DNA from: a virus
Taxonomy: Duplodnaviria; Caudoviricetes
IMG/VR virus record: IMGVR_UViG_3300032285_003710
Coordinates: 1 to 34,250 of that record
Strand: one strand, 5' to 3'
Length of the DNA stretch: 34,250 bases
Position numbers and translations under genes: made by a program. The notes under the pieces were generated by a model, which worked only from the letters and a program-made list of their open reading frames with translations, was not told the DNA's origin and searched no databases. Within the stretch, counting starts at the first letter, position 1. Every line of letters starts with the position of its first letter. Positions 16,044-34,250 of this stretch are shown in pieces.

Positions 16044-16047
16044 AAAG

Positions 16048-17069: not shown

Positions 17070-17073
17070 AAGA

Positions 17074-17922: not shown

Positions 17923-17924
17923 AT

Positions 17925-19355: not shown

Positions 19356-19370
19356 TGTTTGGGTTAATTA

Positions 19371-19406
19371 AAGAGAAAAGAAAAGGCAGACTATTTCCGG
19401 TCTGCC
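19371..19406 (-). terminator. terminator-like hairpin
   Basis: GGCAGAC/GTCTGCC stem followed by TTTTCTTTTCTC on the - strand. Confidence 0.7.
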
Positions 19407-19432
19407 AGCGGTGCGATGGGGATATGTCTGAG

Positions 19433-19473
19433 GAAAGAAACCTCTTAGAAAGTCTCGCAATCTTCCTAAGAGG
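19433..19473 (-). terminator. terminator-like hairpin after the SSB gene
   Basis: CCTCTTAGGAAG/CTTTCTAAGAGG stem (one G-U) followed by TTTCTTT. Confidence 0.65.
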
Positions 19474-19512
19474 CGCGTGTCTCTGTGATAGCAACCACTC
19501 TATCTCTGAGAC

Positions 19513-20031: not shown

Positions 20032-20072
20032 TTTATGTTTTGTTTTGTTTTGTTTTACTAGCACCGACAAAT

Positions 20073-20100
20073 GGGAGGGAGCTTTCTGTGGGCCATTTTT
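20073..20100 (-). promoter_or_regulatory. sigma54-type promoter P3
   Basis: AAAAATGGCCCACAGAAAGCTCCCTCCC: TGGC...GC with 10-nt spacing, intergenic. Confidence 0.7.
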
Positions 20101-20801
20101 TACGGCTTCGAGAGTTCGCTTGCGATTTTGTTAAGAGCCTTCACAACACAATTCTCCATGGGATTAGGCAAGCCCCAGAAGATCGGAGTCTTCGCGGTCG
20201 TGACGCCATCGGTCTGCGTGGCGAAGAAGTATTGAATGGTGTCAGATCCTTTCTCTTTCTTTGCATACACGGACCACACAGCGAGACACTCAGACTCGAT
20301 GCCTTTGTTTGCCCACTCTTTACCTTGGACATACAAGCGGCGTCGAGTGGTCATGCTGCCGTCGAGGCCTTGGATTGGGACGATCTCTTCGAGACCGGTG
20401 ATGATAACGGTTTTATCGAGAGACTTGAGATTCGTACACAAAGTCTGGATGCCGTCGTTGTAGTTCTTCCAGATGTCGAATCCCTTGTACATCATTTCAC
20501 ACTTGACCTGAAGCTGATCAATCGCAGCGGTGATTGAGTCGATGACGACGAGATCTTTCGTTGTGTCTTTCTTTACCTTATTCAACTCAAGAGTGAGCTT
20601 ATCATAGCTGTCGATGGGGACAACGAGCTTCTCGTCGCGCACACGAAACGGCATACCCTTTCGTTCGGCGTCGAAGATAACGGTGCGCGCGGGATCTACG
20701 TTGCGGAAGGACGTAGACTTGCCCGCGCCACTCGGGCCAACGAGTGCGATGAGGGTCTTGGGCCATTTTGGATTTTGTTTTTCTACAGGGGATGTTTCCA
20801 T
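20100..20801 (-). CDS. AAA_24 / Sak4-like ATPase (single-strand annealing)
   Basis: GPSGAGKST, FDAERKG, VVIDSIT; flanked by a nuclease and an SSB. Confidence 0.75.
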   Translation of the reverse strand: METSPVEKQNPKWPKTLIALVGPSGAGKSTSFRNVDPARTVIFDAERKGMPFRVRDEKLVVPIDSYDKLTLELNKVKKDTTKDLVVIDSITAAIDQLQVKCEMMYKGFDIWKNYNDGIQTLCTNLKSLDKTVIITGLEEIVPIQGLDGSMTTRRRLYVQGKEWANKGIESECLAVWSVYAKKEKGSDTIQYFFATQTDGVTTAKTPIFWGLPNPMENCVVKALNKIASELSKP

Positions 20802-20813
20802 ATGTTTTTATTT

Positions 20814-21740
20814 TTACCAAGTCAAAGGCTCGTACTTAGTTATTGAGCACTCCGACAAAAAGAGTTCAAGCTGCACAGCGTTCTGCGCAAAGCAGATTCG
20901 CTTGAAGGGGCAGCTCGGACAGGCATTGCACGCTTTGCCGCTAGGCGGAGGAAGCTTATCGTGGGCCATTGCTTCGTTGATATGATCAGTGAAAGTCTCG
21001 ATGCGATCTTTGACTTCCGAATCAAACTCCCAGAGTTGTTCCTCCGTGAAGCTCCAATCCGGGCCGATGCGCCATGCGGGCGAAGGTAGAGAGATCTGGA
21101 CGATCAGCGTGCGTATCACCATGCGACGATACCATGCAGCGTTGGCGTAGTTGATGTCGTCTTTGAAGATCTCATACGCAAACTTCTGAAAGATGTAATA
21201 GTAATAAGAGAACTGCGTGTCGCCATCGTAGCCCGCGACGGCGTCTTTGAATGCGTACTTGCGCGTCGTCTTATAGTCTGTGATCTGAATGACGCCTTGT
21301 GGGGTTATGCTAAGGAGGTCAACAGTACCCACATACGCGAAGCCCGGGCGGTCGACGACGGGAATGTTGAAGTGAAACTCAGCCCCGCGATTGTCACCAA
21401 ACTTTAAGGGCTGCGGTAAGGATGACAGAGGCGCCGCAGTCAGAGCTTTCCTAATCTGATCTTGATCCTTGGTGGGAAGATTCTTTTCCTTCGCTTCTTT
21501 GAACGCCTCCATACAGGCTTCTTGCCACTTCTCTCCGCTCCGGTCGAATGCGACGTTCTCGGCGAACTTGTGGATAATTTTACCCACCGTCAAAGCGGTG
21601 ATGTCCTCGGCGGGTTTAAGACCGAGGAACACTGTAAAGAACCAGCGCCTCGGACAGGCTGAGATCTTTAATCCAGAAGCGTTGATGGGGATAACTGCGG
21701 GGATGCCTTCGTGAGGGAGGTCTTTGTAGGATAGTTTCAT
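20814..21740 (-). CDS. PD-(D/E)xK (Cas4/RecB-like) exonuclease
   Basis: ACPRRW, GKIIH, GTVD, TDYKT, Q..YY and C-terminal C..C.F...C. Confidence 0.85.
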   Translation of the reverse strand: MKLSYKDLPHEGIPAVIPINASGLKISACPRRWFFTVFLGLKPAEDITALTVGKIIHKFAENVAFDRSGEKWQEACMEAFKEAKEKNLPTKDQDQIRKALTAAPLSSLPQPLKFGDNRGAEFHFNIPVVDRPGFAYVGTVDLLSITPQGVIQITDYKTTRKYAFKDAVAGYDGDTQFSYYYYIFQKFAYEIFKDDINYANAAWYRRMVIRTLIVQISLPSPAWRIGPDWSFTEEQLWEFDSEVKDRIETFTDHINEAMAHDKLPPPSGKACNACPSCPFKRICFAQNAVQLELFLSECSITKYEPLTW

Positions 21741-21806
21741 TAGTAGGATGTTATATTATTGAGGAGAAAAGAGAAGGGCTTTTTAGGCTAACCCCAAGCC
21801 AAAGAC

Positions 21807-22247
21807 TTAGCTCATCTTGCTGTTCGACGCGGGCGACTCACAGTCGCACTTGGCGCGTTGGCCGAGCTTATACACGCGCTGCTCGCTCTCGTCGGCGAGA
21901 CCTTGCAGGAAGTTGAGGGTGCCGCTTGAAGATCCTTTGCAGCACGCATCGACTTCCTTCTGCACGCGGGTCTCGATTTCGAGAAAGATCTTTGGCCAGT
22001 TCTTGATATCTTCCAGATCACAGAACCATTTGGCGAGATCGGCCGCGGTGATGTTGCCGTCGGAGATCTTAGGCTCGACGCCCAAGCCGATCATCCGCTC
22101 GATCACGGCATCGTAGGCTTCTTCGTAGGTAGTATAAAGATTTCCCAGATACTTATGATCTGAAAAGAAACTCTCTCCAGTTACGGTGTTGTGTTTTTCA
22201 TGCGCGGTAAGTTGGGCCGCGCGGAACAGTGTAGCTAAATTATGCAT
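21807..22247 (-). CDS. Dps/ferritin-like protein
   Basis: H..H..VTG..FFSDH..L..LY......D.VIER...LG is the Dps ferroxidase-centre pattern. Confidence 0.75.
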   Translation of the reverse strand: MHNLATLFRAAQLTAHEKHNTVTGESFFSDHKYLGNLYTTYEEAYDAVIERMIGLGVEPKISDGNITAADLAKWFCDLEDIKNWPKIFLEIETRVQKEVDACCKGSSSGTLNFLQGLADESEQRVYKLGQRAKCDCESPASNSKMS

Positions 22248-22260
22248 GTTGTTTGTGGTT

Positions 22261-22348
22261 AAAGAAAAGAGCTACCCAGCGCGCCGTCCCAGGGGAAACC
22301 GTCAAAACCCTGCCGCAAGAACAGCTTGCGGTACGCGCTAGGTAGCTC
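22261..22348 (-). ncRNA. structured intergenic RNA (three-way junction + U tract)
   Basis: 15-bp closing stem with one U-G, enclosing CCGCAAG/CTTGCGG and CAGGG/CCCTG hairpins. Confidence 0.5.
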
Positions 22349-22352
22349 AAAG

Positions 22353-22583
22353 TTATTTCTTGAACTTGAAGTTCTGGGTTTGATTGATGATCGCCTGAAC
22401 ATCCACGCCTTTAAGGAGTGGATCGTTTAGGAGAGAAGCTAAATCCGTACCGGTTGGTCTCGTGTGCGGGAAGTGTTTGAGAAGAAACTTCTCAAGCTCT
22501 TTGTCTGTCATCTCTTCGACGGGTTTAGGTAGGCCGAGGAGGAGATCGAGTTCGTTGAGATTGGAGTTACCTGATGCGCTCAT
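22353..22583 (-). CDS. hypothetical protein
   Basis: 76 aa in the operon chain. Confidence 0.6.
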   Translation of the reverse strand: MSASGNSNLNELDLLLGLPKPVEEMTDKELEKFLLKHFPHTRPTGTDLASLLNDPLLKGVDVQAIINQTQNFKFKK

Positions 22584-22586
22584 AGA

Positions 22587-22790
22587 TCACAAAACAACAC
22601 AGCACAATTTCCTACGAATGATAGCTTTGTCCGTGGTGTTCTCTGCGGCTTTCTCCGGGCTGTCGTATAGCATGGTCGAGAACCATTGGCCCTTGAGGCT
22701 GTATTGATAGGCGTAGAAGTAATACTCTTTTGGGCGTGGAGCTTCTGGCTCGGTGGCGGTGGCAAATGTTAGACCTCGTTCTTCTTTCAT
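22587..22790 (-). CDS. hypothetical protein
   Basis: 67 aa from ATG 22790; the longer ORF call overlaps the SLT-like gene. Confidence 0.55.
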   Translation of the reverse strand: MKEERGLTFATATEPEAPRPKEYYFYAYQYSLKGQWFSTMLYDSPEKAAENTTDKAIIRRKLCCVVL

Positions 22791-22794
22791 GTTG

Positions 22795-23241
22795 TTATTG
22801 GTTGTTTCTGTATTCGCTGTAGAGATTAAAGAATCTTTCACATTTCCGTTGAGCGGGTTTGCTGAGTCGATTGAAGTCATAGTCTTTCCTTGAGAAAGCA
22901 GTAAGGCCGAGATTCCAGGCCGCGTATACATCTCTTGGATCTGGATCTCTCTTTCGCTGGGCGAGACAGAGTCTAAGTTCGAGCCAACAGAGATGGGCTT
23001 TGGCGCATCTTCGGGCCTCGGACGGAATATGTCTAGCATCCTTTTCAGAAGGGAAATGCTGGCGCCAGACTGATCGCTTGAGTTGATATCTTGAGAGTTC
23101 ACCGTGTTTGCCTTTTGCTTTGTCGTTGTCGCTGCTTTCGATTGTTGAGATCGCCCTGAGCTTAGCGTCGAAGTCTTGCTGGAGGGCGATGAGTGTAGTT
23201 TGGATTGAGGTGATTGTCAGACCTATCATAAGGATTTTCAT
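22795..23241 (-). CDS. lysozyme-like / lytic transglycosylase with hydrophobic N-terminus
   Basis: AISTIES (catalytic Glu), G..GE.S.YQ and YAAWNLG motifs. Confidence 0.65.
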   Translation of the reverse strand: MKILMIGLTITSIQTTLIALQQDFDAKLRAISTIESSDNDKAKGKHGELSRYQLKRSVWRQHFPSEKDARHIPSEARRCAKAHLCWLELRLCLAQRKRDPDPRDVYAAWNLGLTAFSRKDYDFNRLSKPAQRKCERFFNLYSEYRNNQ

Positions 23242-23648
23242 AGAGGCCAGAAGTATGGTAGGTTGTCTGGAATGTTTGGAAATTTTGGAGCGTAGTAATC
23301 CGCTTTCTTTCTTATCAGATTACTCTGATGTGTCTTGTGCAGATAAGAGCCGAGCCAATGGGGCTGGATGATGTAAGGGTAAGTGAGAAGCTCTTTCTCA
23401 AAATGCGGTAAGAGGTTATCAACATAGCCCCGAGCGCGGGCTTCTTGGCAGATCTTGATGCTATATAAGCACAACCACGCTGGATAATCTTTGACCATGC
23501 GCACAGCGGGATGACTGCGCCAGCCCTCTGACTTACCTTGGATTGTGTTGAGGATTTGATAAGACTCAACGCGCTGTTTCATAAGGCGCTGGGTGTCTAG
23601 CACGCGGGCAGACTGTTCGATGTCGGGATATGGGAGGAAGATTTGCAT
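23238..23648 (-). CDS. pyrimidine-dimer DNA glycosylase-like (DenV / MSMEG_6728 family)
   Basis: MQIFLPY...SARVLD..RL.KQRVE..QIL...GW..HPAVRM...HQSNLIRK...Y.WP. Confidence 0.85.
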   Translation of the reverse strand: MQIFLPYPDIEQSARVLDTQRLMKQRVESYQILNTIQGKSEGWRSHPAVRMVKDYPAWLCLYSIKICQEARARGYVDNLLPHFEKELLTYPYIIQPHWLGSYLHKTHQSNLIRKKADYYAPKFPNIPDNLPYFWPL

Positions 23649-23669
23649 TTTGTGGTTGTGTTTTATTTA

Positions 23670-24332
23670 TCACTCCAAGCCTTTCAACATCTCCTCACTC
23701 ATCTTCATCACGATAAGTTCGTTCGGAGTGGTCTCAATGATGATTGTGTTGTCTTGCATCGCGAGCTGCCGCGCGAATTTCTCTGCGCTGTTTGTATAGT
23801 TCTGCCAGCTCGCTTGACTTCCGACCTCGCCGCTGTTGACGAATGAGATGATCTCTTCGCGGAAGATCTCTTCGTTGAATGTAAAAGGATCTTCGTCGCT
23901 GCCTCCGAGGAGAGGCGTCATGGCGTCTAGGATATTCTCAACGGGTTCAAGAATCTCGATGACGAGATTTACTTTACGCACTGAGATGTGCACCTTTTCT
24001 TTAAGCTCGTCGACGATGGGGATATCATCAGGGTCGATAACGCCTTTAAGAACCCCGACGCCTTTGTCGTTGATAAAGGCTTTGCCCTGTGAGAGACGCG
24101 CGCGAATTGTTTGAGGTTGTTGCCTGAGTGTGAGTGAGTTGATGGTGGCTTTCTTAGAAGGGATCTTAGAGAGCTTCACTACTAACTGAGCGAATTGAAT
24201 CGCGTGCTTGATGTCGTAGTAAGGCCAGCCTTGCTTGCGCTCGGTTTTATTGAGAATACTTTCCGCTTGCTTGAGCAAGGCGGCTGGGTCTAGTTGTGGT
24301 TGTGGTTGATTTGAGGGATTGAATATGTTCAT
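23670..24332 (-). CDS. hypothetical protein
   Basis: 220 aa, ATGA-coupled to the upstream ORF. Confidence 0.7.
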   Translation of the reverse strand: MNIFNPSNQPQPQLDPAALLKQAESILNKTERKQGWPYYDIKHAIQFAQLVVKLSKIPSKKATINSLTLRQQPQTIRARLSQGKAFINDKGVGVLKGVIDPDDIPIVDELKEKVHISVRKVNLVIEILEPVENILDAMTPLLGGSDEDPFTFNEEIFREEIISFVNSGEVGSQASWQNYTNSAEKFARQLAMQDNTIIIETTPNELIVMKMSEEMLKGLE

Positions 24333-24520
24333 AGGACTAAGAAGTCAAAGTTATTCTGCCAGCTATCATTCAACTGATTATAGGTATTGTTCTTGATCTT
24401 CCACGTTCGCGGGTCGCGGGTTGCTTTGGTATGGCGGCACCGGATACGAACGTCGATGGTTTGAAGTGCGGAGTTTCGGAGGTGGTGATGGTGCGGGAGT
24501 TCGTGGAGCAGGATGGTCAT
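24329..24520 (-). CDS. hypothetical protein
   Basis: 63 aa with ATGA overlaps at both ends. Confidence 0.6.
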   Translation of the reverse strand: MTILLHELPHHHHLRNSALQTIDVRIRCRHTKATRDPRTWKIKNNTYNQLNDSWQNNFDFLVL

Positions 24521-24735
24521 ATTTTCTCCGTGAGTGATCTGATGTACCTGTTCCGCTCCTTCGGTCTGACGTTGATGAGGTATTGGATTGCCAGACAGGC
24601 ATTGACGGTTGCGGTATTTTCCCAGTTCTCCTTGTTGTCGTAGTACTCATGCCACCGTTCACTGGGTGCTACGATGACTTGGCCGGTTCGCTTGTGCTTG
24701 AAGACGAATGCGGCAGGGCCGATGGGGACGTTCAC
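24517..24735 (-). CDS. hypothetical protein
   Basis: 72 aa; GTG start preceded by AGGAGG. Confidence 0.6.
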   Translation of the reverse strand: MNVPIGPAAFVFKHKRTGQVIVAPSERWHEYYDNKENWENTATVNACLAIQYLINVRPKERNRYIRSLTEKI

Positions 24736-24971
24736 GACCTAACCTCCTGCTCACGCCACAGCAGCAGATCCGCTCGCATGGCGTCGTTCTCCTGCTCTAG
24801 TTGCTTGATGCGTTCTCGCGCTTCTTGAAGTTCCCACGCAAGACCACCAATCACATTGTCTCCAGTGACATCTCGCCACTCCTCGCCATAGCGAAGGACG
24901 CGAGTTCCACCAGTTGATACTTGGACGATAGTGTATTTACCGTCACAAATGGTTACGTTTACTCCGCTCAC
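24732..24971 (-). CDS. hypothetical protein (cassette gene)
   Basis: GTG start inside the 26-bp repeat, after AAGGAGG; C-terminal coiled coil. Confidence 0.6.
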   Translation of the reverse strand: MSGVNVTICDGKYTIVQVSTGGTRVLRYGEEWRDVTGDNVIGGLAWELQEARERIKQLEQENDAMRADLLLWREQEVRS

Positions 24972-25213
24972 GGATTGGCCTCCTTGGCTTTGTACCACTC
25001 TATAATTTTTTCGTGATAATCGGTGCTTTTGCTATGACTCAATAAGCAGTTACCAGCTTGAACCAACCGATTGATGCGCTCGTTCAGTTTCTGAATCTCG
25101 TTAGCTGCTGCATCCATCATTATTGCGCGGTTGAACCACCCCACTTCTCGAAGTGACTGAGCGTCATTTCGTAGTTGTTCTTCGAGACTCACGGCTTGGC
25201 CTCCTTGGCTTTG
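24967..25213 (-). repeat. 26-bp direct repeats at gene junctions (24967-24992, 25188-25213)
   Basis: CAAAGCCAAGGAGGCCAA[G/T]CCGTGAG, 25/26 identical. Confidence 0.9.
24968..25192 (-). CDS. hypothetical protein (cassette gene)
   Basis: 74 aa from GTG 25192; bounded by the two repeats. Confidence 0.6.
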   Translation of the reverse strand: MSLEEQLRNDAQSLREVGWFNRAIMMDAAANEIQKLNERINRLVQAGNCLLSHSKSTDYHEKIIEWYKAKEANP

Positions 25214-25214
25214 G

Positions 25215-26060
25215 TCATAGTTCATTCTCCTTATCATATTCCGGCAATTCAATCTCTCCAAGTTCTCTCTTCAATAGAAGATTACGCAACGCCCGAACAT
25301 TCCCAAACGAGAATGTCTCGTCGCCGAAGTGTTCTCTTTCTCCCAACGGGGTCCAGTTTTCCTCGGCGATGATAGCACTGGCGACACAGCGTATCTCTTG
25401 CACACCCCGCTGTTGTAAAGAGAATGTCTTCAAGCCGAGTTCGTTGATGCGGAAGTATAGATCCTCTCTAAAGCTTCCCTCTTTAACCATCTTCAACAAG
25501 TCTCTATTCGTTGCGAAGATGAAGCGACATTGAATCGGAACGGGATCAACAGCTCCGACGGGCAAGACGGTTTTATCCTGCAGCACACGGAGCAACTTAG
25601 CTTGATGCGCCAGCGGCAACTCGCCTATCTCGTCGAGGAAAGCAGTGCCCTTGCCGACTGCTCGGAGAAAGCCAACGTCGCCTCTTGATTTGGCACCGGT
25701 AAAGGCACCGGGCATGTAGCCAAATAGCTCGCTTTGGAATAGAGTATCCGTAAGACCGGCCATGTTCATAGCTTTTAGAGGCTTCCGTTTGTGGGCTAAG
25801 ATGCGAGCGACTAACTCCTTGCCGGTGCCCGACGGGCCTTCGATCAAGACGTTGTATCTCTGCAAGCTCTCTTCGGCGTAGGTTATTGCGGCCGTGAGCA
25901 TCCTCTTGGTGAGAGGATCTTGTGTGGCATAGCACGAAGCTATTGACTGAATAGAGTTCTCCTTCAGCGCGTCGCCTGTGATCTTCAACACATCCTTGCG
26001 GATGTTATCGAGGAAGCTGTCGGCCGCGGCGGTGTTAAGGACGTTTGCGTGGATGTTCAT
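25215..26060 (-). CDS. sigma54-dependent transcriptional activator (bEBP), AAA+ domain only
   Basis: GPSGTGKE, SELFG..PGAFTGA, FLDEIGELP, Q.KLLRVLQ, ATNRDL, FREDLYFR, GNVRAL. No receiver domain and no C-terminal HTH. Confidence 0.97.
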   Translation of the reverse strand: MNIHANVLNTAAADSFLDNIRKDVLKITGDALKENSIQSIASCYATQDPLTKRMLTAAITYAEESLQRYNVLIEGPSGTGKELVARILAHKRKPLKAMNMAGLTDTLFQSELFGYMPGAFTGAKSRGDVGFLRAVGKGTAFLDEIGELPLAHQAKLLRVLQDKTVLPVGAVDPVPIQCRFIFATNRDLLKMVKEGSFREDLYFRINELGLKTFSLQQRGVQEIRCVASAIIAEENWTPLGEREHFGDETFSFGNVRALRNLLLKRELGEIELPEYDKENEL

Positions 26061-26233
26061 TTCTTTTTATTCTTTCTCTTTGAATATATCGAAGAACCGG
26101 GATCTCTTAGCTTATACTTCATGATCGCCTTACGCGTAGAGGCCATCTCTTCTCGCGTAAGATACTCTTCGTCGAGCGAGCCGAGTTTGTATTTGCTGAC
26201 GTACTGATCACCGCGTTGATGGAATTTGCTCAT
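26057..26233 (-). CDS. small basic protein (58 aa, absent from the ORF track)
   Basis: MSKFHQRGDQ...SKRKNKKK; its stop overlaps the bEBP start (ATGA). Confidence 0.6.
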   Translation of the reverse strand: MSKFHQRGDQYVSKYKLGSLDEEYLTREEMASTRKAIMKYKLRDPGSSIYSKRKNKKK

Positions 26234-26528
26234 ACTTTGATAGTTTAGTTTTTAGCCCTATGATCTCCCTCTCCAAGACAGAGATCCTCGCGGCCATTTG
26301 ATTCTTCAAATTAGTCAGATCAAAGATCATTCTGTCATAGTGTTCTTTATGATAAGGCATCTTGCTGATGTTTGAGATAGTGCCCCGTGAGACTCCGAAG
26401 TACTCGCCCGCTTGAACGCGCGTTAGATGCGGGTTAGCATGGATGTGCTCGCGGATGTGCATCTTCTCCTCGAAGGTGAGGAAGTAGTTCTTGCGTGTGA
26501 TATGTGTTGACTTTCTTGAAGGGTTCAT
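26208..26528 (-). CDS. helix-turn-helix protein with C-terminal coiled coil
   Basis: LTRVQAGEYFGVSRGTISNI HTH followed by heptads (LTNLKNQMAARISVLEREIIGLKTKL). Confidence 0.75.
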   Translation of the reverse strand: MNPSRKSTHITRKNYFLTFEEKMHIREHIHANPHLTRVQAGEYFGVSRGTISNISKMPYHKEHYDRMIFDLTNLKNQMAARISVLEREIIGLKTKLSKYEQIPSTR

Positions 26529-26550
26529 ATATGATTTAGATATGGTTAAG

Positions 26551-28722
26551 TTAACTGACAGACTCTACAGGTTCATCGTCATCATCTTCTTCTTCCTCAA
26601 CCTCAACGACGCCGGAGGATTCAGACGCCGTGAGATCTTCGGCGGTAAGTCTCACGACCGCCGCCTTATCCTTGAGTGCCTTCTCAAGTTCTCCCGCCAG
26701 ATCGACGTTCGATGACCCGATTGCGTCTACGGATTTCAATTTTCTTGCAAGCTTAGGAGCCATGTGATCACTGAGGATTGTGCCTTCGGGAACATAGATC
26801 TCTTGCAGTGTGTCGGTGAGGGTTGTGATACGGACACAGCGACCGAGAGCTTGAGCAAACTCCTCTGCCCAATAGGTCATCGTCGATGCGACTTTGCGTG
26901 GGCGTGTATGGGCATAGCGATGATCCAGTGATATGCCTGTGCCTCCGCTTGAGAGAGTATAGATACAGAACTCCGTCTCGCCATTGAGGAACGCTTGCAC
27001 GTTCTCATGTCGTTCCTTTTGATTCTGATTGTGAAGCTTCATCTCTCTTAATTTTTCATTCCTCGCGGCGAATGCATCCTTTGTCATCTCTCGGAAGATA
27101 CGCTCGGAGGTGTACTTGATGCCCTTGTGGAAAGCGCGGAATTCTTCCTTGGTTATCCCAATGTCATCCGCTTTAGGCTTTCTTGCTTCATGAGGATTAT
27201 CAAGAATCCACATGCCCATCTTCGCAGCGATCTCTGCGGCGCGGGTTTCTGGGAGAAGCTCCTCGGGCTTGATCTCTTTGTTGCCACCCCAGATTAGGGA
27301 TATTTTGTCTTTGGTTAGACCCTTAGACTTAAAGTATTCACTATCACAGAGCTTCATCACAAGCTCCTTGAGAGTCTCTGTGAAGCGAATTGCTATGACT
27401 GGCGCATAGCCCTGTCGATGGGCCTCGATCGCATCAGCGACCCAAGTGTCTACGGTGGCAAGCTCGGCCGCTCGGGCCATGACCATGAAGGCGACCATGA
27501 CTTGACCTTGTGGATCTATTGAGCGGCCTGTTCTTTCAATCGCCTCAAGATAATTCTTCATCGCATTCTTGAGCATGTTTTGATTGGCGGGATCAGTGAT
27601 CTCAAAGAGCTTGACTTTGTTGAGAGCCTTCACCTTTTGAGGATCGCCCGGCGGCTTGACTAGTCTATCTCCTAAAGCACCAGCCCAGCGTTCGAGTGCG
27701 GCTGCATTCGCCGAGCGAGGATCTGCGCCGAGAGTTATAGTGCGTGCGAACTCTGGGAATGTTTCTCGCGTGAGAGGTCTTGCTCCATAAGGAAGTCTCA
27801 TAGCGAGAGTCATAAACATCGTATCCCACACAGTCACAGCGGGCGTGGCTGAGGTGAAGACCCACTTAATAGATGGGAATTGAAGGAAAGCTTCGAGGTA
27901 TTTGGTGCGTTTAGACTTCTCTTTCTTAATCTCCTGACACTCGTCGAGGATGATGAGCTTTGGAGCGGCCTGTTCAGGCAGGTTAAAGCGGATCACGTTC
28001 GTCGCTTGACCGAAGATCTCCGTTGTCTCAGTCTTAAAGAAGTTCTTGTTCTTCGTAGAGAAGACTTCGTTGTATGACCACACATCCACGGCGAGGCCCA
28101 CGCTTTCAAGACCCAGTTTCTTGAGGGTGTCTCGGAAGTCAAGGACGACAGACTTCTTGGTGATGATTAGGATCGGCGGAAAGAGACCGAGAAAGTTACA
28201 GAACTTTTGAGGGTCATGTTTTTGTAGCCACAGCGCGAGACCTGCGGCAATCCAACTCTTACCTTTGCCCGTTCCTAAGGGAACGAGGGCGCCGTTGAGG
28301 TTGTCTTTGTACAGTACATCGAGCAAGGCCGCGATAGCTTTCTTCTGCTGGGGCTTGAAATCTAATCCACCCGGGAGTTTGATATCTATGGTGCTGTAGG
28401 TTCTTTTCTCCCTCAAGGCTGCTTCTTCTGCTAAGCGGAGAGCTTCTCGTTGTTGCCTCAAGGGCGCTTGATTAACCCAGCCTTGAAGAAAGCCGAGCAG
28501 TGTAGCGTAATCGAGCTTTACGGTGGGGATTGTCGTGAGATTTAATTCACGCTGCAAGAAGTCCCACTCATAAGGCTCTTTGCGATAGAGATCGGTGAGC
28601 TTCTTCGCTTGCGCGCGGGCTGTGGTGAGTGCTGTTTGTTGAAGACGATCTTCCTTGGAGGTATATTGTTCAGTTTGAACAGGTGCCTTACGGACACCCG
28701 CAGGAGTAGAGAATATATTCAT
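26551..28722 (-). CDS. superfamily 2 helicase/ATPase (SNF2 / strawberry-notch-like)
   Basis: GTGKGKS, ILDEC, SATP, GGTGISL, QALGRCVR; acidic C-terminal tail. Confidence 0.85.
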   Translation of the reverse strand: MNIFSTPAGVRKAPVQTEQYTSKEDRLQQTALTTARAQAKKLTDLYRKEPYEWDFLQRELNLTTIPTVKLDYATLLGFLQGWVNQAPLRQQREALRLAEEAALREKRTYSTIDIKLPGGLDFKPQQKKAIAALLDVLYKDNLNGALVPLGTGKGKSWIAAGLALWLQKHDPQKFCNFLGLFPPILIITKKSVVLDFRDTLKKLGLESVGLAVDVWSYNEVFSTKNKNFFKTETTEIFGQATNVIRFNLPEQAAPKLIILDECQEIKKEKSKRTKYLEAFLQFPSIKWVFTSATPAVTVWDTMFMTLAMRLPYGARPLTRETFPEFARTITLGADPRSANAAALERWAGALGDRLVKPPGDPQKVKALNKVKLFEITDPANQNMLKNAMKNYLEAIERTGRSIDPQGQVMVAFMVMARAAELATVDTWVADAIEAHRQGYAPVIAIRFTETLKELVMKLCDSEYFKSKGLTKDKISLIWGGNKEIKPEELLPETRAAEIAAKMGMWILDNPHEARKPKADDIGITKEEFRAFHKGIKYTSERIFREMTKDAFAARNEKLREMKLHNQNQKERHENVQAFLNGETEFCIYTLSSGGTGISLDHRYAHTRPRKVASTMTYWAEEFAQALGRCVRITTLTDTLQEIYVPEGTILSDHMAPKLARKLKSVDAIGSSNVDLAGELEKALKDKAAVVRLTAEDLTASESSGVVEVEEEEDDDDEPVESVS

Positions 28723-28726
28723 AATC

Positions 28727-29032
28727 TTATAGGTCCATCAACTTCGCGATCACTTCCTCAGCATTCTTGAATCCATAGGCTTGTGGTGTGCGTGAGATCA
28801 AAGAGATGTACTCGCCGAAGACGATACTCTCTGCGGTTGGTTTGTCAAGTAGGGAGAATGAGCGATTGATGGCGTCACGTTTGTTGAGAAGGGGCGTGAG
28901 TTTCTTTTGAAGAGAGATCATCTCATCCTCCAGCCGTTGGCGTAACATTACATTCTTGGTAGTAGCCTTGTCCATCTTGGCTTTGAGGCGCGCTGCTTCC
29001 TTCTGACATTTCTTCTGTAGGTTTTTGTTCAT
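28727..29032 (-). CDS. hypothetical coiled-coil protein
   Basis: 101 aa in the operon chain. Confidence 0.55.
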   Translation of the reverse strand: MNKNLQKKCQKEAARLKAKMDKATTKNVMLRQRLEDEMISLQKKLTPLLNKRDAINRSFSLLDKPTAESIVFGEYISLISRTPQAYGFKNAEEVIAKLMDL

Positions 29033-29636
29033 TTTCTTTTTGATTTTCTTGGTTAATTTTTTCTAAGAGACCGCGAGTGTCTACGATACGGAGGACTTCT
29101 TCGATGGGAAAGTAACAGTTGATATTGTTGAACGCTCCTTTGAGAGCGTCGTTAAGTTGTCTGCTCTTATTCAGATAGACCTCTTCGCCCTGCGATGTGA
29201 TCGCGGCGGCAACTTCAAAGGCTTTCTGTTTGGTGAAGAGCTTAGCTTTGCTTAACGCATCTGCGATCATTTCGATCCGCAGCTCTTCCGCTTTTTTGTG
29301 GAGGAAGGATATGTCAGAGGCAAGGTGGTTTGCTCGTAGTGTTCTTCGTCTTTCGTCGCTGAGATTCCATTCCGTTGAGTCCCAGATGACACTATAGCTA
29401 AGTCCATCTTCGTCGATTCTCTGTATATGGATATGTTCACCCGCGCAGTGAGCTTTAACCCAGTCCGCTGTTTCATTTGTAGCAACAATCGCATGGGCAA
29501 GATTATTTCCTGCAGTTCTGCGGATAAAGTGGCCTCGCTCTGTATCGACATGACAAGAGCAGGCTGGAAAGAGCAATCCCCAGAGGGATTCGCTTGTTGG
29601 CGTTGAGATTTCGTCGTTTTCATTTTGAAGAGGCAT
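28923..29636 (-). CDS. hypothetical protein
   Basis: 237 aa; start overlaps the rpoN stop. Confidence 0.6.
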   Translation of the reverse strand: MPLQNENDEISTPTSESLWGLLFPACSCHVDTERGHFIRRTAGNNLAHAIVATNETADWVKAHCAGEHIHIQRIDEDGLSYSVIWDSTEWNLSDERRRTLRANHLASDISFLHKKAEELRIEMIADALSKAKLFTKQKAFEVAAAITSQGEEVYLNKSRQLNDALKGAFNNINCYFPIEEVLRIVDTRGLLEKINQENQKENEQKPTEEMSEGSSAPQSQDGQGYYQECNVTPTAGG

Positions 29637-30909
29637 AGATTTTCCTTAAGTGCGAGGGTTGAATGCCTAGTTCGGCTCTGTACTTTGCGATCGTGCGGCG
29701 AGCGATGGTGTTCTTTAAGAGGACAACGATGTCTTCGTCGCTTAGTGGGCGAGATTTATCTTCTTTAGATATAATCTCTGCGATCTGATTTTTAATGCTT
29801 AGGTTTGACTGCATGGTGTTTTCATTGTGGTTGATGATAGCTGAGGTGAAGAAGAATCTTAATTCATAGGTCCCTTTTGGGGTGCTTATGTATTTGTTAT
29901 GCACTGCCCGCGAGACGGTTGTCTCATGGATCTCACACACGAGAGCGATCTGCGCCATGATAAGAGGCTTGAGATCTTTGATATTCCCCGAGCGGAAGAA
30001 GTCTGTTTGATAATCTACAATAGCCTTCGTCACGTTGAAGAGTGTAGATTGACGCTGCATGATCGAGCGGATCAAGAACTTCCCTTGCTTCACACGCTCT
30101 CGAATGTATTCTCTGTCTTGCGGCGAGAGCTTATCAAGGTAATTCAGATATCCTTGATTGATCTTGTAGACAGGCAGACGCTCAGCGGGGATCGTGATGT
30201 TGAGATCTTTGTCAAGAAAGATCTCTGCGTCTTTGGGTGTGTGCGTTGAATGGGTGAACTCTGAAGCGGGATTGTAGTTTAGCTTTGCTAGAGACTTGTA
30301 CAGATTCTCTATCGTTGTGAAGGTCTCGTTGTATTTTTTACTTAAGAGAGGAATCTGACGGCGCGTGAATAAGTCTTCGTCTTGTTGGAGGATCTTGTAC
30401 GCGAGAGAGTCTTCTGGGAGTTGAAGACAAAGACAGTCTGCTAATCCCAAAGCGCCTAGTCCGCGTGGTTCTAGTGTGCGGATAAAACGCAAAGCATCTC
30501 TTTGACTTGTGCTGAGTGCATCCAAGTCTCCCGTATAGAATCCGCGCTCGTCGAGCAGATGAATGATTGACAGATCGTGTTGTGCTATAAGAAGTTCTCT
30601 CTCAAGGAACTCTTCAAGAGTCTCCTCTCTCGCGGGGTTATTCTCTAGTGGATACTCCTCTCGGGCGGGCAGAGAATACGAACTAGTCCACTGCATGTCT
30701 TGTGGAAGTTCTGCTTTGTCATTGCGAAAGAGGATTTCTTCTTCAGGCATCTCTCTATCGAGGAGTTCTACGCAAGGATTATCCTGCGTGAAAGACTCCA
30801 TCAAGGTATGGAGTTCACAGAGAGGAGCCTGTAGTAGCGCGAGACTTTGCTGGAGTTGAGGACTCAGGATAAGACTCTGAGTCTGCTGTACGTTAAGTGA
30901 AAACTTCAT
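29620..30909 (-). CDS. rpoN: RNA polymerase sigma-54 factor
   Basis: Region I QQTQSLILSPQLQQSLALLQ..EL...NP; core-binding LDERGF, LEPRGLGA..L.DCL.LQL; HTH LKPL...IA...IHETTVSRAV.NKY..TP.G..ELRFFF; ED...PLSD; RpoN box ARRTIAKYR. Confidence 0.98.
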   Translation of the reverse strand: MKFSLNVQQTQSLILSPQLQQSLALLQAPLCELHTLMESFTQDNPCVELLDREMPEEEILFRNDKAELPQDMQWTSSYSLPAREEYPLENNPAREETLEEFLERELLIAQHDLSIIHLLDERGFYTGDLDALSTSQRDALRFIRTLEPRGLGALGLADCLCLQLPEDSLAYKILQQDEDLFTRRQIPLLSKKYNETFTTIENLYKSLAKLNYNPASEFTHSTHTPKDAEIFLDKDLNITIPAERLPVYKINQGYLNYLDKLSPQDREYIRERVKQGKFLIRSIMQRQSTLFNVTKAIVDYQTDFFRSGNIKDLKPLIMAQIALVCEIHETTVSRAVHNKYISTPKGTYELRFFFTSAIINHNENTMQSNLSIKNQIAEIISKEDKSRPLSDEDIVVLLKNTIARRTIAKYRAELGIQPSHLRKIYASSK

Positions 30910-30935
30910 TTGTCTGGTGGTTGATTCAGACTATT

Positions 30936-30963
30936 GCGATAGAGCCTAAAGTATGCCAAGTTT
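30936..30963 (-). promoter_or_regulatory. sigma54-type promoter P2 (upstream of rpoN)
   Basis: AAACTTGGCATACTTTAGGCTCTATCGC: TTGGCA and GG-N10-GC; 21/21 identical to P1 outside the 7-nt spacer. Confidence 0.8.
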
Positions 30964-30983
30964 TGGCATCTGCGAGATGCCAA
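30963..30983. promoter_or_regulatory. palindrome of two extra TTGGCAT boxes abutting P2
   Basis: TTGGCATCT-GCG-AGATGCCAA. Confidence 0.55.
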
Positions 30984-30998
30984 TACTTGAAACACCTC

Positions 30999-31035
30999 AA
31001 AGAAAAGCCTCTGTGAGATTGCTCCCACAGAGGCT
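30999..31035 (-). terminator. Rho-independent terminator
   Basis: AGCCTCTGTG/CACAGAGGCT stem followed by TTTCTTT on the - strand. Confidence 0.85.
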
Positions 31036-31084
31036 CCTTGTGATTTAGTTGTATTGCAGATTACTTCGTGAGGAAGTAAAACTA

Positions 31085-31732
31085 TTAGACCTTGGCGCTC
31101 TTCTTGGCTTCGCGCTTGGCCTTCGCGGCCGAGAGTTCGTTGGCCTTGGCCAGAAGCTGCGCCAGAGAGGCTATCAGGTTGGACTGCTTCGCGATCGCAG
31201 CGTCCTTATCAGAGACGCCCAAAGAGCGGGCAGTGTCTTCGGTCCACTCGCCAGCCAGAGCGAACACAATCGAGCCGATCTCAGAGCGGATGCTCTCGAT
31301 CTTCTTGAGGACAGACTTCTCAGTCTCACGATCGGCGCTGACGCCATAGATAAAGGCGGCGAAATAGTCGGGCGTATTTCCTTTTGACAAGTAAGCCTCG
31401 CTAGCGTCTTCGGCGATATCCAGCAAGTGCTCGGCGACGAGATCGCTCAAGGCGTTCGACACGCGCTTGGTCTCGGTCACAGAGCCATCTTCGTTCTTAA
31501 CCTTCGTGACGTGCTCAGTGGCGATCTCAGCGAGAGCTTCGCCGCGCTTGATGTAGTATTGCAAGTCGCTCACAGCCAGAACGGGCTTCTGGAAGGAGAC
31601 AGTGCGCTCGGCGCTCTTCGCAGTCTTACGGACGTGACGCTCGCTGGTGGTGAACAGAGGATTGCCATCGGCGTCGCTTTGGAACACGCTACCGGCAAAG
31701 GAGGCGACGAGTTCGAGGTTCTTAGTGCTCAT
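31085..31732 (-). CDS. hypothetical protein, monocistronic, with K/A-rich C-terminus
   Basis: 215 aa with its own promoter (P1) and terminator. Confidence 0.8.
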   Translation of the reverse strand: MSTKNLELVASFAGSVFQSDADGNPLFTTSERHVRKTAKSAERTVSFQKPVLAVSDLQYYIKRGEALAEIATEHVTKVKNEDGSVTETKRVSNALSDLVAEHLLDIAEDASEAYLSKGNTPDYFAAFIYGVSADRETEKSVLKKIESIRSEIGSIVFALAGEWTEDTARSLGVSDKDAAIAKQSNLIASLAQLLAKANELSAAKAKREAKKSAKV

Positions 31733-31829
31733 TTTATTTTGTATTTCTAACTTTGTTGGTTGTTTGTTTTGGGATGTTTACGGTCGCGCGACCTTAGACA
31801 TTTCGCTTGTCACCAACGGGACTTGCAAA

Positions 31830-31857
31830 GCGATAGAGCTTCTTGAATGCCAAGTTT
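31830..31857 (-). promoter_or_regulatory. sigma54-type promoter P1
   Basis: AAACTTGGCATTCAAGAAGCTCTATCGC; located just downstream of a terminator. Confidence 0.8.
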
Positions 31858-31869
31858 CGTGTAAGCTCT

Positions 31870-31902
31870 AAAAGTAAAAACCCACTCAGTGAAGAGTGGG
31901 TT
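31870..31902 (-). terminator. Rho-independent terminator
   Basis: AACCCACTC/GAGTGGGTT stem followed by TTTACTTTT. Confidence 0.85.
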
Positions 31903-31955
31903 GTAATCTGTAATGCGTTGGCTGCGTAGCAGCGGGCGTAAGCCCTTGTGATCTG

Positions 31956-32255
31956 TTATTTGATCACGACGGCCAGAGTGAGAGCATTCTTTCTGATCTC
32001 TCGGATTTGACGCGCCGCGTTTGCGAGATTGCGGGCGGCAGATGAATCGGGATAGCCTTCAACGTGAACGAGTTCAAAGCCGGGATGCTTTTCATCCATT
32101 ACACACTTTAGCTTGTGAACGTCTGAGGCTTCATAGATATGAAGCTCTTTCTGCTCATCGAGATAGAAGGCTGCATAGCTTCTGTGTTTAGCCATGGCGG
32201 TTGCGTTGCGGGAAAGAACCTCGTTGATGAACGAGAGTTCGGCTTGTTTTGTCAT
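31956..32255 (-). CDS. hypothetical protein (paralog of 33341-33631)
   Basis: 99 aa from ATG 32255. Confidence 0.7.
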   Translation of the reverse strand: MTKQAELSFINEVLSRNATAMAKHRSYAAFYLDEQKELHIYEASDVHKLKCVMDEKHPGFELVHVEGYPDSSAARNLANAARQIREIRKNALTLAVVIK

Positions 32256-32376
32256 GTTGTGTTTGTCGCTCGGGCGTTGTGCCTTACTAGACAAACGAGA
32301 TCTTGCATCTAATAGACCATCTGATCTGGGAAGCTTCTGAGCTACGCTGGCGGCTACGCCGCTGACGCCTCACGGA

Positions 32377-32523
32377 TCACTTCGCATATCGTGGTTTGCT
32401 TGATGCCTTACGCTTTACGTCATAAGCAATAGCGAGAGCTTGTTTTTGAGGCTTTCCTGCTTTTAGTTCAGCTTTGACGTTCTTACTGAACGCTTCTTTA
32501 CTAGCAGATTTAACAAGAGGCAT
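32377..32523 (-). CDS. small basic phage protein (48 aa, absent from the ORF track)
   Basis: [48 protein letters not shown]; matches the widespread MPL.K..S.....N...E...GKPQKQA.AIA phage family. Confidence 0.8.
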
Positions 32524-32594
32524 AAGTGATATTTATTTCGACTGTGTTGCTTTATTACAACACAAACAAAATAAACATCAACTATGCCACCTGT

Positions 32595-32768
32595 TTAGTT
32601 GCCGCCGAGGATCTGACCGAGTTCTTCGGCGGTGAGGTTGAAGTCTACGCTGTAGATATTCTCAGCGAGGATACGCTGGATGTATGTGTGAACGTCTAAC
32701 GAATTACTAACAGGTGCGAGACAATAAGAGTAGAAACCCTTAATGTGCGAGGGGATTATGATGATCAT
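32595..32768 (-). CDS. hypothetical protein (57 aa, absent from the ORF track)
   Basis: ATG lies 3 nt after the upstream stop; frame is open to TAA at 32595. Confidence 0.55.
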   Translation of the reverse strand: MIIIIPSHIKGFYSYCLAPVSNSLDVHTYIQRILAENIYSVDFNLTAEELGQILGGN

Positions 32769-32771
32769 AAG

Positions 32772-33032
32772 TTATGCATCCTTGATTGTTATGTTTGTTG
32801 TACCGGTTTGAAAAGCTGCGCCGTTTGTACCTTTTGCCTTGCGCGCAGTGACTCTTTTATGAACGCGAAAAGCATCAGGGTGCATAGGTTGAATCGCGCC
32901 GCCGGTCTTGTGGCCAAAGTTCAGCGCACCCTTATAGCTCCACTGAGGAGCGCATTTGATACAGCGATCGAAGCCTAATGCTTTGCGATCGGTGTCGATG
33001 ATTTGGAGACATCTTAAGCAGCGATTTGTCAT
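32772..33032 (-). CDS. DksA/TraR-like C4 zinc-finger protein
   Basis: CLRC..IDTDR..LG..RCIKC. Confidence 0.6.
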   Translation of the reverse strand: MTNRCLRCLQIIDTDRKALGFDRCIKCAPQWSYKGALNFGHKTGGAIQPMHPDAFRVHKRVTARKAKGTNGAAFQTGTTNITIKDA

Positions 33033-33163
33033 TTCTTTTTAGTGAATAAGTTTTTAATGAAAAATGCCACAGTGCTAAGAGCTAGAATGAAACAAGCTCC
33101 GAGCATGACAATAATCATAATAACGGCATGAAAGATTTTTTGATTTGGTGATCTTTTTCTCAT
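33029..33163 (-). CDS. small single-TM membrane protein (44 aa)
   Basis: MRKRSPNQKIFHAVIMIIVMLGACFILALSTVAFFIKNLFTKKK; ATGA overlaps at both ends. Confidence 0.65.
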   Translation of the reverse strand: MRKRSPNQKIFHAVIMIIVMLGACFILALSTVAFFIKNLFTKKK

Positions 33164-33300
33164 AGGAGTTCTTCCTTTCCAATATCCCATCCCGGACCAT
33201 CATCAAGAGGCTCGTCGTCGTAGATGCTCAATTCACGACGCAAGTCTTCCAAGGTGGGATTTTGTTCTGTCTCTTCGATTGGTTCTTGTTTATTGTGCAT
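33160..33300 (-). CDS. small acidic protein (46 aa)
   Basis: MHNKQEPIEETEQNPTLEDLRRELSIYDDEPLDDGPGWDIGKEELL; stop overlaps the next ATG. Confidence 0.6.
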   Translation of the reverse strand: MHNKQEPIEETEQNPTLEDLRRELSIYDDEPLDDGPGWDIGKEELL

Positions 33301-33335
33301 AAAATAAAAAACCTGTAGTTATTCACTACAGGTTT
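33301..33335 (-). terminator. Rho-independent terminator
   Basis: AAACCTGTAGT/ACTACAGGTTT stem followed by TTTATTTT. Confidence 0.8.
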
Positions 33336-33340
33336 CAAAA

Positions 33341-33631
33341 TTAGGTTGTTAGCAGATTTAGTCCAATACCTTTTGAATTTACTACTAATTTATTACAAAA
33401 CTTAAATGCTTCTCTGACTTGTCGCGCTTCTTTATGGCGCTCAAAAGCTAGTATTGAATGCAACTCCCAATCGGGATTGCGCTCTTTGAAATATGCAACG
33501 GATTTGTTTACGTCCTTTGCGTCAAACGCATCATAACTATTATCTGGCTTGTGATAAATCAGAATAAATGTTGGATTTGTGGATTGCTGTAAAGCTTCAT
33601 TGGTTTTAGCCAATGCGCTTTGCAACGCCAT
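33341..33631 (-). CDS. hypothetical protein (paralog of 31956-32255)
   Basis: 96 aa from ATG 33631; the upstream ATG lies in a terminator loop. Confidence 0.7.
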   Translation of the reverse strand: MALQSALAKTNEALQQSTNPTFILIYHKPDNSYDAFDAKDVNKSVAYFKERNPDWELHSILAFERHKEARQVREAFKFCNKLVVNSKGIGLNLLTT

Positions 33632-33652
33632 ATCCTGAAAATCATCGCCCGT

Positions 33653-33689
33653 AAAAACAAAAGAAGCGTCTTTGTGCATAAAGACGCTT
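33653..33689 (-). terminator. terminator-like hairpin
   Basis: AAGCGTCTTT/AAAGACGCTT perfect 10-bp stem followed by CTTTTGTTTTT. Confidence 0.7.
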
Positions 33690-33711
33690 TTGCATTACGA
33701 AAGCCAATTTG

Positions 33712-33810
33712 TCAGAACATTATTCCTTTCACAAAGTAATACAATACTACAAAGAGCACAATGGCTCCGAGCGTTGCGATAATGAGTTCGTCTTTCTTGT
33801 GTTCTTTCAT
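33712..33810 (-). CDS. small membrane peptide (32 aa)
   Basis: MKEHKKDELIIATLGAIVLFVVLYYFVKGIMF. Confidence 0.55.
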   Translation of the reverse strand: MKEHKKDELIIATLGAIVLFVVLYYFVKGIMF

Positions 33811-33815
33811 AAATA

Positions 33816-34043
33816 TTAGATCCAATCTATCTTAGAGAGTTTGACTTGCGCCGCCGAGACGGCAAAAGTACCTTTACAACGCCAAGCGCGTGCCTTGTGA
33901 CACGAGGATTTGTCGTGCTTAGCGTTGCGCTTGCTTGTATGTTTTATGGCAAGCTTGTTGAGCTTACGAGAAGCTTGAGAGGTTAACAAATGGAATTGAG
34001 CTTGTGACGATTTATCAAAAGCTGCTGTCGGGTTTGAACGCAT
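33816..34043 (-). CDS. hypothetical basic protein
   Basis: 75 aa from ATG 34043. Confidence 0.45.
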   Translation of the reverse strand: MRSNPTAAFDKSSQAQFHLLTSQASRKLNKLAIKHTSKRNAKHDKSSCHKARAWRCKGTFAVSAAQVKLSKIDWI

Positions 34044-34250
34044 AGTATCGAGACACAAAGGTGATGGAGTAAGGAGGATAAAGGAAGACTGAGAAGAGAG
34101 AGAAGACTGACAGAGGATACTTTGTGTCCCGATACTATGCGTCCGCTTGTGGCAATTTGGTCGCGCTCTTTGAGGGAGTAAATCCCCAAAGGGTTGCAAT
34201 TATCAATCCACAAGGGACGCTTGTGTGTCTAGTGTAGGGACAAGCCTACA

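Follow-up and report, generated by a model that had tools for sequence, protein, structure and literature searches.

A minimal sigma54 activator, joined in two branches by a phage RpoN, as the probable transcription switch of a phage lineage

Phage sigma factors such as T4 gp55 (with gp33/gp45) and SPO1 gp28 and gp33/34 redirect the host core RNA polymerase (RNAP) to phage promoters, and they are sigma70-class proteins that melt DNA without an AAA+ remodeller. The 34,250-base record IMGVR_UViG_3300032285_003710 of an uncultured tailed phage (the window, by which we mean the whole stretch analysed) raises the question of what a phage does with a gene for RpoN (sigma54) and, in the same run of genes, one for an AAA+ activator of the bacterial enhancer-binding protein (bEBP) type. 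A first-pass annotation, made from the letters alone, had read the two as a private pair that redirects host core RNAP. Our analysis suggests that the phage probably uses a minimal activator, here together with its own sigma54, to direct host core RNAP to phage -24/-12 promoters. Unlike in T4 and SPO1, the sigma factor is thus of the sigma54 class, and the component conserved among the phages is the activator and not the sigma factor. No phage-encoded RpoN or GAFTGA activator was found in the full-text literature searched (most subscription papers lay outside the search, and supplement tables of virome studies may list such genes), and a phage sigma54/activator system is apparently undescribed there.

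The window carries its virion arm on the plus strand and its early/replication arm on the minus strand (Table 1). From rpoN to the bEBP gene the open reading frames (ORFs) form a chain whose six junctions have gaps of -17, -110, 4, 22, -26 and -4 nucleotides (nt), so that they overlap or lie at most 22 nt apart, and the terminator scan of the window lists no minus-strand terminator between 30909 and 25215, in agreement with the co-oriented run first described. The neighbours are phage replication genes and, as the annotation had also said, the usual company of bacterial rpoN is missing, with no match to the lptB, hpf or ptsN families among the 42 window proteins scanned. A chimeric contig, which would have undone that reading, is not what we see: in run X1, which may be the source sample, a single contig of 18.9 kb covers 25181-33500 with 0 differences, contigs of diverged relatives from three runs recorded as freshwater metagenomes cover most window bins, and independent assemblies reproduce the gene order around rpoN and the bEBP gene. 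Scans of IMG/VR gave 13 contigs with RpoN, all 13 of which also carry the bEBP, and 27 with the activator. The order g215-rpoN-g237-g101-helicase-g106-g58-bEBP is found in 19 of these 27, the other eight ending before the rpoN position; rpoN and the bEBP gene therefore stand in the same order in all 19 close-relative contigs long enough to show it.

The claim that RpoN is full length was borne out by hidden Markov model (HMM) scans, in which the Pfam domains AID (residues 4-49), CBD (90-254) and DBD (267-423) all score above their cut-offs, as does TIGR02395 (286.5 bits against 277.35). The protein aligns over its full length with solved sigma54 chains, Region I being intact, and keeps R286 (the equivalent of R336, whose loss is described as leading to activator bypass; PMC7057263), the helix-turn-helix (HTH) HETTVSRA at 328 and the RpoN box ARRTIAKYR at 403, which is the same as in several Verrucomicrobiota RpoNs. 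All the sequence features by which the sigma54 family is recognised are therefore present, namely the three domains, the HTH for the -12 element, the RpoN box for the -24 element and the inhibitory pair of Region I and R336. The best 120 relatives in the protein database are 73-93% identical to it, and its identity to the best cellular RpoNs is only 35-44%. The median ratio of nonsynonymous to synonymous substitution rates (dN/dS) is 0.096 for rpoN against the window (8 usable of 9 pairs, one being saturated), 0.057 for the activator over 9 pairs and 0.063 for the helicase gene that precedes it. Such low values indicate that the three genes are maintained and, by this measure, rpoN and the activator gene are both under purifying selection.

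The activator, described at first as an intact GAFTGA bEBP, deserves that description. It matches PF00158 at residues 63-210 (E 2e-49) and keeps Walker A (GPSGTGKE, 75), GAFTGA (118), Walker B (FLDEIGE, 141), the R-fingers (FREDLYFR, 197) and sensor II (GNVR, 253), that is, the motif set of clade 6 AAA+ bEBPs, in which Walker A reads GxxGxGKE. Its structural model (mean predicted local distance difference test, pLDDT, 82) matches the fold of NtrC4, NtrC1 and FleQ (template-modelling score about 0.7) and also that of PspF. Its AAA lid is shortened. What sets it apart is how little it has besides the motor. Only 74 residues precede Walker A, where the model has one long helix, and neither a receiver domain nor HTH_8 was detected by the Pfam scan. 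It thus lacks both the C-terminal HTH with which bEBPs of groups 1-4 bind an upstream enhancer and the N-terminal receiver domain of group 5, which has no DNA-binding domain. As judged from its sequence, it fits none of groups 1-5, and its architecture is that of FleT, described as the only known bEBP without regulatory and DNA-binding domains (PMC7175178). The same holds across the phage lineage introduced below. All 23 lineage activators are short, at 235-355 aa, and have no room for an HTH; in the 19 where GN[VI]R could be recognised, 15-28 aa follow this motif. The catalytic, R-finger and GAFTGA/GSFTGA motifs are preserved across the lineage, and each of the 23 records has a single bEBP match. 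In a tree, 27 short phage-type bEBPs separate from 30 cellular ones with support of 97/97.

If such a protein acts on sigma54 promoters, the phage genomes should contain them, and -24/-12 elements are indeed found. The element heading the rpoN run is present in all 19 upstream regions, and in all 25 metagenome loci with enough upstream DNA (the two sets overlap), with a spacer that varies in sequence and is fixed in length. In this element and in that before g215, GG and GC lie 10 nt apart, and each element follows a terminator-like hairpin; the hairpin before rpoN was flagged in a relative, yet not by the terminator scan of the window. The g215 element has a homologue in the RpoN-less relatives G006 and G007. 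At the rpoN element the -24 half-site is also repeated in inverted orientation. All 19 regions and all 25 metagenome loci have the first of these palindromes, and 14 of the 19 regions have the second; neither is seen at the g215 element, and we infer a candidate autoregulatory site. Autoregulation of rpoN by sigma54 has been predicted for Verrucomicrobiia (PMC12316311); a sigma54 element precedes cellular rpoN in only 3 of 40 loci, all with T, which gives no hint of a host. Homologous elements precede the single-stranded DNA-binding protein (SSB)-like/polymerase block (whose SSB-like homologue in G014 has a weak DUF669 match), the capsid gene, a tail-fibre gene and a small gene that precedes the putative terminase.

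Counts support this picture. TGGCA-N8-GC lies within 330 nt upstream of all 34 capsid loci, against 0-3 loci for spacings of 5-7 and 9-11. In the sense upstream regions of 12 records, spacings of 5 to 11 give 5, 1, 3, 33, 0, 13 and 4 matches (antisense, 1; shuffled means, 0.08-0.5 per record; six records are close kin), the enrichment not being significant individually in G005, G014 and G010, and six further RpoN-less genomes give 4, 4, 3, 39, 4, 6 and 4. The excess of 13 at a spacing of 10 was considered as a second promoter class and set aside, as it is partly explained by the palindrome before rpoN. In 21 non-redundant capsid promoters, positions outside the search pattern also follow the sigma54 consensus, and no upstream word or dyad that might be an enhancer is shared by them, as expected for an activator that works without one. 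The elements thus have GG and GC exactly 10 nt apart, are strand-correct, lie upstream of genes and exceed chance, as -24/-12 promoters should; in the window's clade, the -12 element is AGC or GGC instead of the canonical TTGC. A scan of the window for canonical TGGCAC-N5-TTGC (at most 2 mismatches) gave 20 matches against 30 expected and was uninformative; the sites emerge only with the GG-N10-GC core pattern. A sigma70-type scan of 14300-34250 gave 21 matches against 18.4 expected; one candidate for an internal early promoter, TTGACA at 28848, was rejected because it is a Leu-Asp-Lys codon run that is not conserved. A small ORF with an R67 dihydrofolate reductase domain (PF06442, E 1e-19) stands behind an early-region element of this type in G008 (L166:13178-13459).

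How far does the system extend? Distant short bEBPs and, independently, the putative capsid protein both lead to a lineage of 45-56-kb phages with 30-59% GC. The capsid identity comes from ESM Atlas (Phage_capsid_3 clusters, 0.97) and gene order (the AlphaFold model has a pLDDT of 33, and a PDB profile search of the capsid gave no match), and that of the tail fibre from PHROG/Pfam. A census of the 25 records of at least 33 kb out of 34 capsid loci, nine shorter contigs being left out, finds the activator (PF00158) in 23 of 25 records and in 19 of the 19 that are at least 90% complete. RpoN (PF04552) is found in 5 of 25 and in 5 of these 19, four in the window's clade plus G014, and a local HMM search (--max) of 12 records found it only in G001-G004, G014 and the window. 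The co-occurrence that the annotation proposed to search for thus holds among close relatives, where both genes are present in 19 of 19, and does not extend to the lineage. The other 14 of the 19 near-complete genomes, including the sister genomes G006/G007, have the activator without RpoN, which implies that host sigma54 is what the activator works with over most of the lineage. A search for a sigma70_r2 domain gave no match in any of 20 lineage records (a positive control was detected). The idea that sigma54 serves instead of a phage polymerase agrees with the failure to find a T7-type RNAP in the same 20 records, a search without a working positive control.

RpoN itself looks like a later addition confined to two branches. 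G014 and two fragments encode a different RpoN of 488 aa, about 33-39% identical to that of the window, between Sak4-like and SSB-like genes. A phage tree built from four genes joins the window's clade to RpoN-less G006/G007 as its sister (100/100) and rejects a grouping of the two RpoN-bearing branches (p-AU 3.5e-5), in which the positions of rpoN differ too. In the RpoN gene tree, one origin is not rejected (p-AU 0.45) but has no firm support (80/63, with long branches), and one gain with later losses is possible. In G006 a sigma54-type element stands directly before the g237 homologue, so that rpoN in the window's clade occupies a slot between an existing promoter and g237. Some records call for comment in their own right. 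G001 holds two diverged copies of the virion block at its ends (2519-9194, 51826-58477), so that part of its 58.6 kb is probably due to two strains overlapping in the assembly. Mis-binning of phage DNA seems to explain both L082, a fragment of the phage clade inside a Phycisphaerales metagenome-assembled genome (MAG), and the G006 activator (protein P0128), which NCBI lists under a Caulobacteraceae MAG.

As for the host, two trees place the two phage RpoNs within a clade of Verrucomicrobiota sequences (99/98 and 98/95) when compared with the best 80 of 175 pattern matches and the best 30 of 401 Verrucomicrobiota genomes as references. This placement suggests that the phage RpoN was likely taken from Verrucomicrobiota and that the host is likely a member of that phylum. 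A prophage search of the 401 genomes with the capsid profile gave 0 matches; it had no positive control and is uninformative on lifestyle.

We therefore picture the system as follows. Host sigma54-RNAP would sit on the phage elements as closed complexes, and read-through, or host bEBPs that act while in solution, would supply a first trickle from the rpoN-helicase-activator operon. The activator would be constitutively active because it has no inhibitory receiver domain. With no need of an enhancer, it would open any sigma54 closed complex, that of its own operon among them, resulting in a positive-feedback switch set by protein level and not by a signal. The captured rpoN would enlarge the sigma54 pool, allowing better competition with sigma70 for core and independence from low host sigma54, while the inverted -24 half-sites would damp rpoN once sigma54 is abundant. 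The targets would be replication, packaging, capsid and tail genes, and infection would be flipped to replication and virion gene expression, a timing read from gene identity alone. A bolder version, which we hold only tentatively and rather doubt, is that the whole middle and late programme of a widespread family of phages of about 50 kb runs on an ATP-driven, enhancer-free sigma54 switch, that this became a self-amplifying and self-damping module in at least one branch, probably in two independently, with an own sigma54 drifted to AGC promoters and to its cognate activator, and that the SF2 (superfamily 2) helicase may be a DNA-tracking carrier in place of the DNA-binding domain that was lost.

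Several points weigh against the proposed mechanism. Anatomy and conservation are what we observe, and our statements on activity, start-up, timing, feedback and host are inferred from them. The main gap is how the loop gets started, because a terminator-like hairpin precedes the sigma54-type promoter of the operon and no conserved sigma70 promoter was found inside it. FleT, which lacks the same two domains, is reported to be inactive alone and to need FleQ (PMC11999139), and sigma54 promoters of the host would be fired as well by an activator that needs no enhancer. In G430 the roughly 4 kb preceding the activator run gave no element, and the putative terminase that figures among the targets is a weak call (Pfam E 0.1). 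The cellular RpoN set behind the host assignment is biased to Verrucomicrobiota and is without Chlamydiota and Planctomycetota. Finally, in 151 Verrucomicrobiota genomes the canonical WTGCW form is enriched (867 matches against about 218 in reversed controls), unlike the AGC form (241 against about 397, the control totals being summed by hand), which leaves room for an altered specificity.

That specificity is the core of the private pair in its strict form, in which the phage RpoN works only with the phage activator, prefers AGC promoters and is insulated from host sigma54 and bEBPs. AGC does dominate the intergenic sites of RpoN-bearing phages without being enriched in most of the 151 host genomes, the phage RpoN is on a long branch, and paralogue-specific pairing of promoter and activator is documented, for example for Cereibacter sphaeroides RpoN (PMC11999139, PMC3162934). 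However, the -12 element is AGC not only in the window's clade and G014 but also in RpoN-less G006/G007, and it is mixed in G420/G422 and canonical TGC in the rest; A at this position is found in 17 of 28 distinct clade A sites, 4 of 6 G014 sites and 8 of 10 sites of G006/G007. AGC is therefore not a private code. Moreover, the HTH and RpoN box have matching recognition helices in host RpoNs, AGC-rich genomes exist in small number among Verrucomicrobiota themselves (G153, 13 against 0; G112, 15 against 1; G158, 7 against 0; G130, 6 against 0), and host sigma54 must start the loop. We consider such insulation unlikely, and of the pair first proposed we retain a sigma54 system acting on host core RNAP and not its privacy, which the 14 activator-only genomes do not support.

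A dependence of the activator on help is another account, to which we give a rather low probability. It would need a host bEBP in a mixed ring or a phage partner, the SF2 helicase or the small HTH protein, for delivery. FleT is a precedent (PMC11999139), the AAA lid is shortened, an enhancer-free activator needs a means to favour phage DNA, and in 18 of 23 records the bEBP core has a helicase homologue at most 1.5 kb away, with identities down to 25-30%. On the other hand, the full motif complement is kept across the lineage, the range in GC content suggests varied hosts with different bEBP sets, no shared enhancer or second phage bEBP was found in these genomes, and the HTH ORF is missing in the sister genomes. 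Still another account has the system directed at the host, either keeping core RNAP from sigma70 or rewiring the host sigma54 regulon (envelope, nitrogen), with the phage elements secondary or decoys. Host sigma54 promoters are common in Verrucomicrobiota and would be hit by an enhancer-free activator, and some relatives (G426) have opposed or non-gene-facing sites, but strand-correct elements before the capsid gene in every locus and before other essential operons, together with the finding of no alternative phage sigma70, make this very improbable. That the contig is an assembly chimera, or that host genes were captured recently and are now decaying, is refuted by the shared order in 19 contigs, the unbroken contig cover, dN/dS of 0.06-0.10 and the low identity to cellular RpoNs, even though database contamination exists: the GenBank "phage" matches to RpoN and bEBP have low identity, are mostly from bacterial-looking contigs and were not used.

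A minimal activator that directs host core RNAP to phage promoters, the reading we prefer, has its closest likeness in bacterial sigma54/bEBP transcription, where FleT/FleQ/RpoN2 of Cereibacter (Rhodobacter) sphaeroides likewise join an AAA+ GAFTGA activator to a dedicated sigma54 paralogue, and fleT is itself reported as sigma54-dependent (PMC11999139). The phage genes differ in being viral, in having no phage-encoded FleQ-like partner and a sole bEBP per genome, and in having phage replication and virion genes as targets. That an isolated bEBP ATPase domain can suffice to activate sigma54 transcription is described for CtcC, which has no HTH and a regulon of mid-late developmental genes (PMC7482065); both CtcC and FlgR are said to keep a receiver domain and to need phosphorylation (PMC7175178), whereas the phage protein has a short helix there. 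Among phages, one sigma54-like promoter read with host factors is reported for Pseudomonas phage YuA, in a passage that names no phage RpoN or bEBP (PMC10914365, citing Ceyssens 2008). Htm (Gp204) of Escherichia coli phage AV110, an AAA+ protein without HTH, has been proposed to act on sigma54-RNAP; as described, it is without a GAFTGA loop and its Walker B is altered, and the study of it dealt with how it affects the host transcriptome (bioRxiv 10.64898/2026.10.06.757011). In contrast, the activator here has all canonical bEBP motifs and predicted cognate phage promoters.

In the literature searched, sigma54 is a purely bacterial, signal-gated system, of which this phage lineage appears to make a developmental switch, apparently by reducing the activator to its motor, with two branches also carrying the sigma factor. 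If true, this is a third route of phage transcription control beside an own RNAP and sigma70-type sigma switching. It would offer a natural minimal activator for testing what bEBPs need beyond the AAA+ core and how specificity is achieved without an enhancer, a natural experiment on sigma competition in sister phages of which only some have RpoN, and a candidate set of sigma54, activator and promoters that is semi-orthogonal. It also suggests that a common group of freshwater phages has its hosts among Verrucomicrobiota.

Table 1. Genes and promoter-type elements of the sigma54 region and related sites in the window
Feature	Position	Strand	Basis
Minimal bEBP, 281 aa: AAA+ core with GAFTGA, one N-terminal helix (~residues 10-42), no receiver, no HTH	25215-26060	-	Pfam, model, dN/dS
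rpoN, full-length sigma54, 429 aa: Region I, core-binding domain, extra-long helix (ELH)-HTH, RpoN box	29620-30909	-	Pfam, TIGR02395, structure alignment, dN/dS
TTGGCA-N8-GCT element heading the rpoN...bEBP run, ~49 nt before rpoN ATG	30943-30959	-	pattern and conservation
Inverted -24 half-sites at rpoN promoter: TGCCAA-N3-TTGGCA (30968-30954); second arm TTGGCA-N9-TGCCAA (30983-30963)	30954-30983	.	conservation
Intrinsic-terminator-like hairpin that would shield the rpoN promoter from the upstream gene	30998-31035	-	z -5.5; conserved in alignment
TTGGCA-N7-AGCT element before g215	31837-31853	-	just after terminator-like hairpin 31879-31902
TGGCCC-variant, AGCT element before SSB-like gene and DNA polymerase/ligase block	20080-20096	-	homologous place in G001-G007, G014
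Two weaker GG-N10-GC candidates with TTGGCT, before 112-aa gene and exonuclease gene	33691-33707, 21786-21802	-	second also in G003
SF2 helicase-like gene, 723 aa; upstream neighbour of activator lineage-wide	26551-28722	-	Pfam, relatives
Small HTH-like ORF g106 (106 aa, 26208-26528) and 58-aa ORF g58, just before activator	26057-26528	-	weak HTH matches; clade-restricted
g237 and g101, two ORFs without assigned function (237 aa, 28923-29636; 101 aa, 28727-29032)	28727-29636	-	relatives
g215, conserved 215-aa gene, function unassigned, behind sigma54-type element	31085-31732	-	relatives; no family match

Among the genes around rpoN and the activator, a likeness of the helicase to Strawberry notch was considered and dropped for want of Pfam support at E up to 1. 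In G009 two ORFs (15875-18078) make up the split helicase that precedes the activator, and G422 has two 408-aa ORFs at the helicase position (17453-19917). The small HTH-like g106 evolves fast (35-92% identity, with a tandem duplicate in L017, L018 and L028) beside an activator conserved at 91-98%, and no homologue was matched in the sister genomes G006/G007. In the AGC-rich Verrucomicrobiota genomes, some G112 sites look repeated, and the RpoNs of G153, G112, G158 and G130 do not group firmly with the phage RpoNs.

Elsewhere, no tRNAs were found in the 9 loci scanned, and Rfam gave no match in the window. On the plus strand, the 1751-aa product of 8972-14227 is probably an internal virion protein and has an ART-PolyVal ADP-ribosyltransferase domain at residues 791-951; it could modify host targets at entry and hence bear on the start of the sigma54 loop, and its counterparts in G014 and G008 have no ART-PolyVal match. 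A virion-arm protein of 810-850 aa in these two genomes (L172:1925-4354, L165:7312-9765) has a calcineurin-like phosphoesterase domain, and its 844-aa counterpart in the window (3353-5887) has no Pfam match. The minus strand carries a Dps/ferritin-like gene (21807-22247), present in few relatives only (L012, L031), and one for a pyrimidine-dimer glycosylase (23238-23648), present in most. It also carries a split family A DNA polymerase (16074-19355), with an exonuclease part of 476 aa, a polymerase part of 337 aa and an ATP-dependent ligase between them. This split is kept across most of the lineage, with extra genes between the parts in relatives, and the halves are adjacent in G009.

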